Below are positions 641 through 60,800 of a DNA stretch of 64,000 nt, piece after piece; within the stretch, counting starts at the first letter, position 1; each line of letters opens with the position of its first letter. The position numbers and the translations under genes were made by a program. Under the pieces are notes generated by a model. The model was given only the letters and a program-made list of their open reading frames with translations, made no database searches and was not told the origin of the DNA. The DNA comes from Chrysomallon squamiferum (lineage: Eukaryota > Animalia > Mollusca): NCBI GenBank assembly GCA_012295275.1, contig CM022674.1:12214001-12278000 (forward strand), given 5' to 3'.

Positions 641-3600
641 GTAAGTAATAATTAGTGATGATTAGTTCTTCACAAACCGTGGAAATTACACGAGTAAATT
701 AACCTTCATCATAAAAGATGAATAATACGTAGAAAAAGTTGTGTTAATAAAGGAAACAAGAATACTAATACAGACACAAATGCTGACTGTGCAGTAACAT
801 AGCTACATTCCAAAGGCAGAGTACACGTATTATTATTATATAAACAGAACAATGCGCTCTAAACATATTTAAAAAGGAATTACATAGATTAATTACCATC
901 ATTGTCTTAACAGGAATAATATGCATGTACTGCATTATTATATAAACTTCAATAACACAGAATAAACATATCATGACTGTGTAAAAAAACAACTAACAGT
1001 AGCCAAACAAATATTGTCTTTTAGTTAAAATTCAGTCGTGCACTTCAATCTACGAATCGAACTTAGCCAAATGTATTAATAGCACTGGCCAGTCCAAAGA
1101 ATCACTGGACTTTATGATATCTCGTGGCCAAGCAGGGTCTATACCAGAAGGAGAAACTATTCAAACTTTCAGACAAAAATCCTGCACGTAAGTATATTTT
1201 CGGTTGTTCCTAAGCATGTATCTCACTATGTATCCGTTTGTATGTATGTATTCATTTACATAACTCTCTGTGTATACCTACCTCTTTATACGTATATGTA
1301 TATATATCTATACTTATTTGTATGTTTATGTACATATTTCTGTTTGTATTTGCACACATTTGTATATACGTATCTGCGTGTTAATGAACGTCCGTACGGA
1401 TGTTCATATATTTGTATCTCCGTGTCTTTAATCAGCCTGTTTACGTATGCATGAATTTATGTGTGAATTTTATATATGTGCATTTATATGTGTATCCGCT
1501 TGCACGTAGGTATGTATACATGTATATATGTTTGTATGAATATATGTTTGTGTATTTGTTTTTCAGTAATGTTCATGTTTATATGTTGGTATATACATTA
1601 ATGTATTTATGTGTACCATGTTGTCTATCAGAATATTTGTACGTCTGCAAACTTGTATCCTTATGTCTGTAGATTGACTAAAACCAGTTTATCGTCAAAC
1701 TGTTTCCGACGTGTTGGTGATGCTATAGATAAAAATGATATATGTAAGCGTCTTATCGGAGATAAAATCAAGAAAGATGTCAAAAACAAATTATCGGAAT
1801 ATAAATTGGCATGCACTGCTGGTAAGTAAATAACAGTAAGAGTTCAGTATAACAGTAAGAGTTCAATATAACAGTAAGAGTTCAATATAACAATAATTTG
1901 TAAAATTATGCTGTCTCGTTGATATGATGTCATATGATAATAAAAGTTTGTTGTCTACTGATTTTGTACTTAGTGAATAACATCGAACAAAAGAAATTAG
2001 CAAATACTCAGTATAGTATCTAAAGAAAAAACGACAGATTTGAACTGTCTTATAACTAGCATAGTTTAACCACATTGGGATGATGAGGAACATGAAATAA
2101 CATTCTTTATGTTTGTCTACTTCTGTTGTGTATTCTTGAAAATGTAAACGGTAGAATCAGGATAAGATGATAAATATCTGCTTTTCAGCAAACGAAACTG
2201 ATCTGCTTTCACAAATTAATATTTTCGGTAATTAGATAAAATATTCATTGTTTCTACACAATATTACTTTTCTACTGAACCAAAATGTCATCATCGATCT
2301 TTGATTTTGTGCATTTCGAGTAACTTGTTCATTAAATTTGTTCTATGTTCCTCTGACATCTGTACTTTTTTTTAATTTCAAATTCCTTGAGTTTGTTTTC
2401 AACGTTTCTTCATCTTTTCTTGATGGATCCCAACTTTCAACATTTCATTAGCCATTATAACACTATCAGCGCTATTACCAATAATTCTTCATACGGGAAA
2501 ATAAAATAAAGGTGTTACCGGTGTCCTTTTCGCTCATTTTCATTCCGGTGTCGCAACTTAACACTTTTACAGTATCAGGATTTCCTGATTTCTTTATTGA
2601 TGAATGCATGTTGCATTGAACCGTTCAAAAAAAAAAAATGGGTTTCAGTTATTTATCTTTTTTTCTTCAAAGTTTTTGGTGAATGGACCGAATGGACAGA
2701 ACAACGTGGTGAGTGTAATAACACGTGTGGTGTTGGCATCGCTGTTGTAACGACAACTCGAACCTGTAAAGTGCTTCCACAGACTGGTAGAACACTAAAA
2801 CTATGCGTGGGAAGTTTAAACGAAACAAGACTTGAATCCTGTAACACGGAAACAGAATCTTGTAAACGTAAGTAATAATTAGTGGATATAGCCTAATCAT
2901 GAGCAAAAGAAGAATACAACTAATTAAATGTACCTTCATCATATAAAGAGGAATAGCTCGTTGACAAAGCTGTGCTATTAAATGCTGATTTGCAGAGAAC
3001 AATAATATTCTCGTAGTTACATTGTACAGAAAGGTAAAAGGTAGCGTAAATGTATTATTATTATTTAAACAGAATAATTCGCATTAAACATTAAAATAAA
3101 TTAAAATAGCAACATTAGATCATCAAGAATCAAGCAAATAACTGTGAAAACAACAACCAGTAGTAACTGTACTATTATTATATTTCAGTTGAAATTGTGT
3201 CGTGCAATGCAATGTACGCTTCGAACTTAGACAAGTGTATTACTGACACTGGCCATACCAAAAAATCGATGGACTTTATGCTATCTCATGGCCAGTCAGG
3301 CTCTATTCCGAAAGAGGAATCTATTCTAACTTTCAGACAAAAATATTGCACGTAGGTATATTTAGGGTACATGTGTCTGAGTTTGTAAGTATGCGTATAT
3401 CTGAATTCATAGGTATGTATCTTCGTATTCGCAAACGTCTACAGAAGGCCAGCGTATTCATGTACGAATGTAACTACCTGTCATTTCCGCGTACCTTTTT
3501 ATCAACCCAAGTATGTGTGTTTGTATGTATCTCGAGTGTACATATATATATATATATATATTTATATGCCTGTCTATCTATGCTTCTACGTGTTTATATA

Positions 3601-57800: not shown

Positions 57801-60800
57801 AAATAACTAAAATAAAATTAAGTAGTATTTAAATTTTAAGTTAAAATTTTAAGAAAATAAAAAGTAATGATTCATGATAATAAATATTTAAGTATAAAAC
57901 AGTATTATACTCAGTCACTTTCAACAAGACATCATTCCCATGTTTCTGCTTCTTTTTCCAACTGTTTTTGTTAATTTTGTTTTCCAAATGTTTTGTTGTT
58001 CTATTTCATTTTGTATTTTTATATATATATATATATATATGGTACTACTATACTAGTAGCAGTATTATACTATACTACTACTAGTAGTAATAATATTTTT
58101 TTTTTTTTTTTTTTTTTTATCTCTTTTAATAGAAACAGCATGATACCATGCTTATAAGCTTTAATCCAATCATCAGTAATTCCATTTTTTGTTTTTATAA
58201 TATTTCTTTCATGACCCCAGACTTTATCCAGAAATGGCAGTAACCACCAGTAATCTCCATCTATCTATCTATCTATCTATCTATCTATTTATGTATATAT
58301 ATATATATATATATATATATATATATATATATATATATATATATATATATATACAGAGGGTGCAAAAGTAGGTATCAGTGAATTTAGTAGCACATTAAAT
58401 TAGTTACACTCATTTTTCTTATTTTGAGTGTCATTAACGATATTTTATTTAAATTAATAAAAATGCATATATTCTTATATCAGCTTTTTGGATAGAATAA
58501 TAAATGCAATGAGTACCTACTTTTGCACCATCCTATATATATTAATTGAGATGTCGGTTTTGGGGCAGTTTTTATTATTATTTCTGGTTATTGTGCAGTT
58601 ATTGACAAAATAGTACTGTTGTTTTGGTTCCTAGTCTTTTCTCTTTTTTTATTAAACTGTTGATTTTTTTTTTTTGTTGATTTTTTTTTTTATATTGTAA
58701 CATTTTTCAGTAATTGGTATATTTCTGTTACAGTTTCTTGTATGCCTACCATTGGAAATATCTGTTGGTTTCAACTCTTGCTCCTTACCTGTGTAAATAA
58801 AATAGATTGGTAAATGTTTTCCTTTTCATTCACCAAGACTGAAGTATTAATAATATTAATATTATAAATGTATGTGACTGTATGTGCCAATAATCAGCAG
58901 TCTCAAATGTTTATGTTTTTTTTTATTTGAATCTCTTTAAATGTTGTTAGGAATAGTGTCTTACCTTTATTACAAACTTTTTTCCAGTCATCAATAAATT
59001 TACTTTTGCGGGTTATAACATTATTTTTTTTATATCCACAGCCTTTTTCTAGAAATGATTTAGTCATATCATCCAAACATGTTTTCATACTTTGTATATA
59101 GCTTGCACTGCAATTAATTGGTTTACTTGTTAATTTATTAATTCTTCTGAATTTCCTAGATGTTTGGGTTTTTTCACCAATGTAAGTAACAACAAAAGTA
59201 ATGTGTATCATGATTGTAACATCTCTGGACCATGTGACTTCACAGAACTAAAATTTAGCACAGCTAAAATGGCACAGATTAATTGTTTATGACAGAGAAT
59301 GTGCCAAGATGTGAAATCTTCTGCTAAAGCAATGCCCCACCAGTGGAAATAAAACGTTTGACATCTTTAAATTACAACATAATACTATACAGATTATTCA
59401 GTGAAACAACATTTCATTATTTATGAAGAACTGCATGTTTTCCTTACCACCCTAGCTGTCTTTTAATAATGATGTTCTTTTATTATCAGAAGATAGTCTA
59501 GTGTATATGTTACAGTAAGGTTGCGAAATTAGTTTCAGAAAATACCTATACAACTTTCAAATCTTCAGATATTTGATGTAAGCATATTTGCTTAGTTAAT
59601 ATTAGTAATATTTTTGGAAGAGTGAAACAATAAAAAACATAAATAACTTGAATGATACATATCCATTTCTTTACATAAAAGTCATAATTTTCAAAATATG
59701 AAACAAAGTATGCATGAATATCTTCTTTTGTATTACTCATACATTTATCAGAATGGTCCATACTACAAACCAGAGGTGTAGGTGTAACCCTTATTCATTT
59801 TGACTCTAAAATTTGCCTGTTATACTGAAAACCTTTGAAAACATTCTAAATGTAATTGTCTGGCCCTGTATCTGTCACTGAGACAAACACAATGGCTGGC
59901 CACCTACAAAACATTTAGACCATCAGCTCACCACACCGAAAATTAAAATATTCACTTACTTACACATCTTCATTTTAAAACTATTTAAATCTTTGTACTT
60001 AGAGTTCAGTTCTCCCACTGTTCCATCTGTAATCAGGTAAAGATAGTTAGTGTTTGTTATTTCTCGTGGTTCTAAGCACAGCTTGATTATTTCTTTTGAA
60101 AATTTCATTACACATAGTGTCTGGCCATCTGACTCCCAGATCATGATCAAGTTCACTAACACTGGAATAAATAATAACTATTATTTCAGAATCATCTACA
60201 ACTTTTCAAAGAAAATAGCAGTCATGATTATAATCAAATGCATGAAAGCAGACATCCACACACCTAAGTGTTATCTTTTTACTTTCAGCTCGGTTTTGTT
60301 TACACAATAAGCATATTATCTGTGTTATCCAATAAACTTCATCGGTTGAAAGGAACAAGTTTGCCCGTACACCGGTTTACGCGATAGCATAATTCCCTGT
60401 GCTAATGTTGGAAAAATTGGTTGATTATAAATTTTTGAGACGTTAAAGTGGGTTTATGCAGTTTTATATCTTTTTCTTCTTCTTCTTTTCTCGTTTTTTA
60501 TTTTTTTGTTTTTATTTTTTTATCTGCATTAGGAGTCCTTCAAAAAATAGTAACAAAAAAACAAAAAAAACACGACCTGCTAACAAGCACGCCTATACTT
60601 AAACCTGCAAAGATTACGGTTCGTGTATGTTAATTTGATTTATTAGACTTAGCAGATGTTTTTTCTAAATATTTTGTCGTTGCTTGTGAAGAATTAAAAG
60701 AGTCGTATAAACATTAAAGCTCGTTTTTGTTTTATCTTCTAGTTTTGTTATTATCATCATTATTCAAATATTATGTTTTTTAACACTGTTACCTTTGACA

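Follow-up and report, generated by a model that had tools for sequence, protein, structure and literature searches.

Four genes and their shared domain

The DNA analyzed here (the window) is a 64-kb stretch of the genome of the mollusc Chrysomallon squamiferum (assembly GCA_012295275.1, contig CM022674.1, positions 12,214,001 to 12,278,000), which has 30.8% G+C and many microsatellites. It contains four genes, gene 1 on the forward strand and genes 2, 3 and 4 on the reverse strand, which would encode single-pass membrane proteins with a common extracellular domain of about 100 residues and six cysteines (Cys1 to Cys6), split over two exons (B and C). That this domain is real we regard as nearly certain.

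The six-frame translation of the window was searched iteratively with three seed exons as queries. The forward strand yielded 14 exons resembling thrombospondin type 1 (TSP1) repeats, 13 full exons B and 13 exons C, and more copies were found on the reverse strand. By splice-site mapping and joining by coordinates, 16 domains were assembled, 13 in gene 1 and one each in genes 2, 3 and 4. This is the census of the initial annotation, and the limits it gave, 1025 and 60161, are exactly the first bases of exon B in module 1 of gene 1 and in gene 4. When all copies were combined into a search profile, the window yielded one more partial exon B (18846-18925, forward strand; about 22 matching codons, with an acceptor), located shortly before the complete exon B of module 9, but no further complete copy.

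In all 16 copies exon B has AG/GT ends, starts in phase 1 and ends in phase 2, two bases past the Cys3 codon, as had been claimed for the intron just after Cys3; exon C ends in phase 1. The distances between the cysteines, 10/11, 36/37, 10, 12/13 and 21/22 residues, also agree with the description: 10, 36, 10, 13, 22 in ten gene-1 modules (module 11 counted only by reading through its frameshift), 10, 36, 10, 13, 21 in two, 11, 36, 10, 13, 22 in gene 2, and 11, 37, 10, 12, 21 in genes 3 and 4. However, only 14 of the 16 copies are clean as assembled. Exon C of module 5 is one base short, which puts the sixth cysteine in another frame, and that of module 11 is one base short counted from the true acceptor.

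All four genes were modelled solely from their splice sites and open frames. Each module of gene 1 spans from the start of its exon B to the end of its exon C, as follows: module 1 (B 1025-1187, C 1673-1821), module 2 (B 3189-3351, C 3794-3942), module 3 (B 5307-5469, C 5896-6041), module 4 (B 7227-7389, C 7948-8096), module 5 (B 9363-9525, C 9948-10095), module 6 (B 11042-11204, C 11585-11733), module 7 (B 12518-12680, C 12896-13044), module 8 (B 15798-15960, C 16721-16869), module 9 (B 19158-19326, C 19624-19769), module 10 (B 21161-21329, C 22516-22664), module 11 (B 23914-24076, C 24815-24962), module 12 (B 26084-26246, C 27354-27502) and module 13 (B 28916-29084, C 29337-29485). Exon B is longer, 169 bases, in modules 9, 10 and 13.

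Between the modules are 14 TSP1-like phase-1 exons (446-31228), starting at 446, 2673, 4769, 6635, 8853, 10618, 12008, 13246, 17763, 20332, 23326, 25485, 28078 and 31037, of which the third has two extra bases and is frameshifted. Two W, six C and one R are invariant in all 14 aligned exons, and the exon profile matches five molluscan TSP1-repeat proteins with E values from 4e-30 to 1e-12, which supports their assignment as TSP1 repeats, with the WxxW, CxxxCG and Arg-strand features and six cysteines of that family. Single exons are below the Pfam threshold, with weak Pfam rows for two of the four tested. Since domain scans pick up only weak TSP1 repeats here, the family is invisible to standard annotation.

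Gene 1 thus comprises 13 domains interspersed with at least 14 TSP1 exons, and ends in a basic tail that is preceded by a linker and a transmembrane exon. The model of this last part (33018-36995) places the linker at 33018-33095, the transmembrane exon at 33838-33937 and the last exon from 36853, with five micro-exons of 21-24 bases (phase 2-2) at 34801-36065 encoding a cytoplasmic tail very rich in Lys and Arg. At 71-76% identity, bases 1-445 look like the introns that separate an exon C from the TSP1 exon after it, so gene 1 probably has more modules upstream of the window. As for its introns, the one before module 8 (13441-15797) is far longer than its paralogues and may contain an insertion, the TSP1-to-TSP1 unit there being 4517 bases long compared with 1238-2994 elsewhere. 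Extra sequence of similar look occurs near 21480-22330 and 29540-30500, and intronic minisatellites at 18039-18623 and 33323-33796, with periods of 18/19 and 39 bases.

On the reverse strand, gene 2 encodes the end of a signal peptide, the domain, one TSP1 repeat, a transmembrane helix and a tail of 93 residues, and its entire model is in frame. The domain is at 42587-43137 (B 42936-43137, which includes the signal peptide end; C 42587-42735) and the remainder at 40275-42278 (TSP1 42087-42278, transmembrane 41712-41811, cytoplasmic exon from 40557). In its last exon, an 18-base repeat (40346-40453, 6.1 copies) encodes a six-residue Arg-Gln-Thr-Ser-type repeat, which we take to resemble basic kinase sites. 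Gene 3 has the domain at 51248-52184 (B 51983-52184, C 51248-51390), then two TSP1-like exons (50874-51070 and 50134-50316), a transmembrane exon (49231-49323) and a short tail exon from 48933, this remainder spanning 48860-51070. Two frame slips at A runs affect it: the TSP1-like exon 50874-51070 is frameshifted, and the transmembrane exon is out of frame by one base, or a small exon is missing from the model. For gene 4, the domain (58965-60161; B 59960-60161, C 58965-59107) is followed at 54850-58788 by four stalk exons of 39 bases, a transmembrane exon (55432-55526) and a short tail exon from 54887. The stalk exons (56059-58788) are paralogous, with 13 Lys/Ser/Thr/Asn-rich codons each, and three of them carry an N-x-S/T sequon. 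Judged by eye, genes 2-4 have a signal-like, hydrophobic stretch ahead of Cys1 and transmembrane exons downstream, as expected of a secreted or surface domain. In addition, a near-perfect tandem duplication of 239 bases (45394-45872, 98%) lies in the window and is possibly an assembly artefact.

The iterative search found no TSP1 exon in gene 4. Therefore, the six-cysteine domain is the sole ectodomain common to all four genes.

Conservation and gastropod relatives

Besides the cysteines, the domain has a conserved loop motif, F/Y-h-x-S/T-x-G-x-x-G-x-h-P (h, hydrophobic), whose first G is present in all 16 copies, the second in 14 and the P in 15. The initial annotation had recognized this motif as far as its second G, with one residue instead of two between F/Y and S/T. 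It had also stated that little else is conserved, which is true between genes, where identity is 9-27% overall and 9-23% for gene-1 modules versus genes 2-4, but not within gene 1, whose modules (12 compared) share 38-70%, with a mean of 52%.

Could such low similarity between genes be due to chance? A hidden Markov model (HMM) built on 12 gene-1 modules, with module 5 excluded, gives 44.3, 24.6 and 14.2 bits for genes 2, 3 and 4, respectively. The highest scores among 300 Cys-preserving shuffles per gene (296, 298 and 299 of which had a reported score) are 16.6, 11.7 and 12.6 bits, each gene being compared with its own shuffles, and none of the 300 reaches the real score. Therefore, the homology between genes is not due to chance and exceeds the mere cysteine pattern, although gene 4 is the marginal case. 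In the tree, again without module 5, the gene-1 modules form a single clade (97/97), and the remaining branches are weak or long.

Relatives were also sought by searching the exon-B profile against 1.84 billion representatives. Among the six matches at E values up to 0.001, three were accepted as real, namely P0005 (Haliotis), P0006 (Patella) and P0004, an unnamed, exon-B-like open reading frame (ORF) of 67 residues. The others, three bacterial repeat proteins, were rejected, as they aligned in short pieces only. In uncharacterised proteins of Haliotis (XP_071110021.1, XP_067659075.1 and XP_046338344.2) and Patella (KAK6176817.1 and XP_050413044.2), the first domain shares the six-cysteine spacing (11, 36, 10, 12/13, 22) and the loop motif, and a signal-like segment also precedes its Cys1. 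HHalign aligns this first domain with the window profile over 79 columns, through Cys5, with a probability of 97.8% and an E value of 1e-12. The homology signal lies mostly in exon B (40 bits, 0/300 shuffles), and exon C alone is weak (4/300 and 81/300). As read from the protein, the Haliotis genomic ORF P0028 leaves the spliced sequence at two places, one within the signal peptide and the other one residue beyond Cys3, by which both intron positions of genes 2-4 are apparently the same in Haliotis.

The named relatives are all molluscs, and our literature search found no paper that names the Haliotis or Patella records. Unlike the products of genes 1-4, these proteins have neither TSP1 repeats nor a cytoplasmic tail; after the first domain come two more helical domains, also Cys-rich, and a stalk rich in Thr and Pro, and the hydrophobic C-terminus by eye is like a glycosylphosphatidylinositol signal. 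Domain 1 of P0005 has no detectable likeness to domains 2 and 3. Consequently, the domain defines the family, as had been proposed, to the extent that it unites the four genes, but it also heads gastropod proteins of different architecture. No other protein joining the domain to TSP1 was found, which is weak evidence, since these searches cover lengths of up to 2000 residues and depend on shared words.

Known families and predicted fold

The description of the domain as unassigned is supported, for it has no significant match in Pfam, NCBIfam or the PDB sequences, nor among the best 50 fold matches listed. It should be noted for the Pfam negatives that the HMMER filters drop weak matches and that the window domain was scanned by exon, not spliced whole. 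In particular, no row for DUF19 (PF01579) appeared at E values up to 10 with four whole gastropod domains, 16 exon-B copies and six full proteins, or up to 1 with 15 exon-C copies.

In the ESM Atlas, the best row for the domain is an unnamed cluster (0.81), and the sole named family, at rank 2, is DUF19 (0.77, 130 of 256 features). The gastropod domains 2 and 3 (P0005 residues 130-330), which have no Pfam match, fall among CPG4, DUF19 and DUF1397 clusters (0.81-0.87), with one unnamed bacterial cluster scoring equally high (0.85). Scores below 0.9 are leads only; one in three shuffled proteins scores at least 0.8. DUF19/CPG4 was already the leading guess before the atlas comparison, and the agreement is a modest confirmation.

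DUF19/T20D4.11-like (PF01579), CPG4 (PF15481) and DUF1397 (PF07165) are, like the domain here, secreted, Cys-rich and of unknown function. The cysteine pairs of DUF19 are closer-spaced than those of the six-cysteine domain, which further differs from the group in being joined to TSP1 and a transmembrane helix. According to the respective papers, DUF19 is a large, secreted family of 51 genes in C. elegans, 14 of them induced by infection (PMC3534327), it is tabulated as a secreted, Cys-rich protein (PMC3527274) and is annotated on an oyster protein (PMC10058639), and DUF1397 was found in centipede venom (PMC6878950). We favour, with some reserve, descent of the domain from this helical Cys-rich group; a distant relationship to the group is more probable than a new fold.

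The structure model of the Haliotis homologue is helical with a confidence score (predicted local distance difference test, pLDDT) of 92, in line with the helical nature suggested by the initial annotation. The domain is predicted to be a disulfide-stapled three-helix bundle, with three long helices and, inserted between Cys2 and Cys3, a short helix-loop-helix that carries the loop motif. From the six retained cysteines and the helix geometry, the putative disulfides are 1-5, 2-4 and 3-6, three as the initial annotation had suggested. Among the best 50 matches listed, the Haliotis model has no significant fold match, and the closest structures are tight three-helix bundles.

Possible roles of the domain

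We propose cell-surface recognition or adhesion as the mechanism of the domain, with a probability of about 0.45. Its partner would likely be a protein of the matrix or of another cell. In genes 2-4 the domain would form the tip, with a glycosylated stalk or one or two TSP1 repeats holding it out. Gene 1 would have arisen by repeated duplication of a three-exon unit of about 2 kb, and its product would be a long rod whose diverged binding units, at least 13 in number, would serve avidity or a range of partners. Wherever single, the domain is at the membrane-distal end, on stalks of differing make, and in gene 1 it is multiplied with a TSP1 spacer. Among the gene-1 repeats it also diverges faster than TSP1 while retaining the cysteines: the ratio of nonsynonymous to synonymous substitution rates (dN/dS) is 0.61 (78 pairs) and 0.69 (66 pairs) for the domain versus 0.52 (78 pairs) for TSP1, leaving out the frameshifted TSP1 exon 3 and exon C of module 5. 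Distal position, TSP1 spacing and faster divergence would all fit a binding head on a spacer. EBR1, the sea-urchin egg bindin receptor, is composed of TSP1 and CUB repeats, and invertebrates have clustered polymorphic transmembrane genes. Compared by architecture alone, the analogy lies in TSP1 alternating with a second domain and in clustered, diverged single-pass paralogues; here the second domain is helical, not CUB or Ig.

Alternatively, the domain may have a mainly structural role, as a protease-resistant spacer or coat of glycocalyx, mucus or matrix that lacks a specific partner, non-specific binding of glycans being due to the TSP1 repeats and the basic surfaces. The 13-fold repetition and the positive net charge of 14 of the 15 copies examined fit such a role, as do the relaxed constraint without clear positive selection and the basic, low-complexity tail of gene 1, which has no recognisable signalling domain. 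We nevertheless regard it as unlikely, because a functional head fits better with the single tip copies in genes 2-4 and the gastropod proteins and with the retention of the loop motif when overall identity is about 20%.

A three-helix co-receptor like RGM-N or RAMP, binding a growth factor or receptor ectodomain on the same cell, is distinctly unlikely. The second gastropod domain has a cysteine spacing that is presumably like that of neuritin and RGM-N, and the RAMP1 ectodomain (3n7p_D) and the RGMB N-terminal domain (6z3m_C) are found among the fold matches. However, their scores are tied with those of unrelated bundles, at 5% identity, they lack the 36-residue Cys2-Cys3 segment with its two extra helices, and the Pfam and PDB-sequence searches gave no RAMP or RGM N-terminal row. 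In the literature, RAMPs are described as a three-helix ectodomain with one transmembrane helix and a short tail (PMC9832379), and RGMA as a helical bundle binding BMP2 (PMC13234300); a search for the disulfide pairing of RAMP1 met with no paper that states it.

Size, the all-helical model and six cysteines would also suit a carrier of small hydrophobic molecules in chemosensing or lipid handling, with the Cys2-Cys3 insertion possibly capping a pocket. Saposins and insect odorant-binding proteins carry C-x2/3-C pairs, which are absent here, the shortest spacing being 10, and neither family gave a Pfam row, so the domain's spacing is indeed unlike theirs, as first noted; with tight bundles as the closest of the 50 listed structures, a carrier seems very improbable. 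Equally improbable is decay of a duplicate array in gene 1, and perhaps in gene 3, with full proteins from genes 2 and 4 only, to which five frameshifts across the two genes and the stray partial exon B might point, since the frameshifts are called as one-base slips (two extra bases in TSP1 exon 3), three of them at A runs, resembling long-read errors, the 38 aligned gene-1 exon spans have no in-frame stop, dN/dS is below 1, and the cysteines are retained without exception and the splice sites with few.

Taken as it stands, the domain is a real helical ectodomain without a name, distributed in molluscs, and its architecture here was not met in the collections searched. That it is an undescribed mollusc-wide receptor module with its own capping loop, built in this lineage into a cluster of single-pass recognition proteins that includes a rod of at least 13 diverged, TSP1-spaced heads, and thus a candidate for self/non-self, symbiont or gamete recognition without Ig, LRR, lectin or CUB domains, is an unlikely extension of the proposal. 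As a defined, foldable domain common to this genome and two gastropod genera, it provides a handle on unannotated molluscan surface proteins. If it is a DUF19-like offshoot, it would give that group of unknown function a membrane-receptor context, and if the domain serves as a binding head, its tandem array would be a test case for how invertebrates construct recognition receptors without Ig domains.
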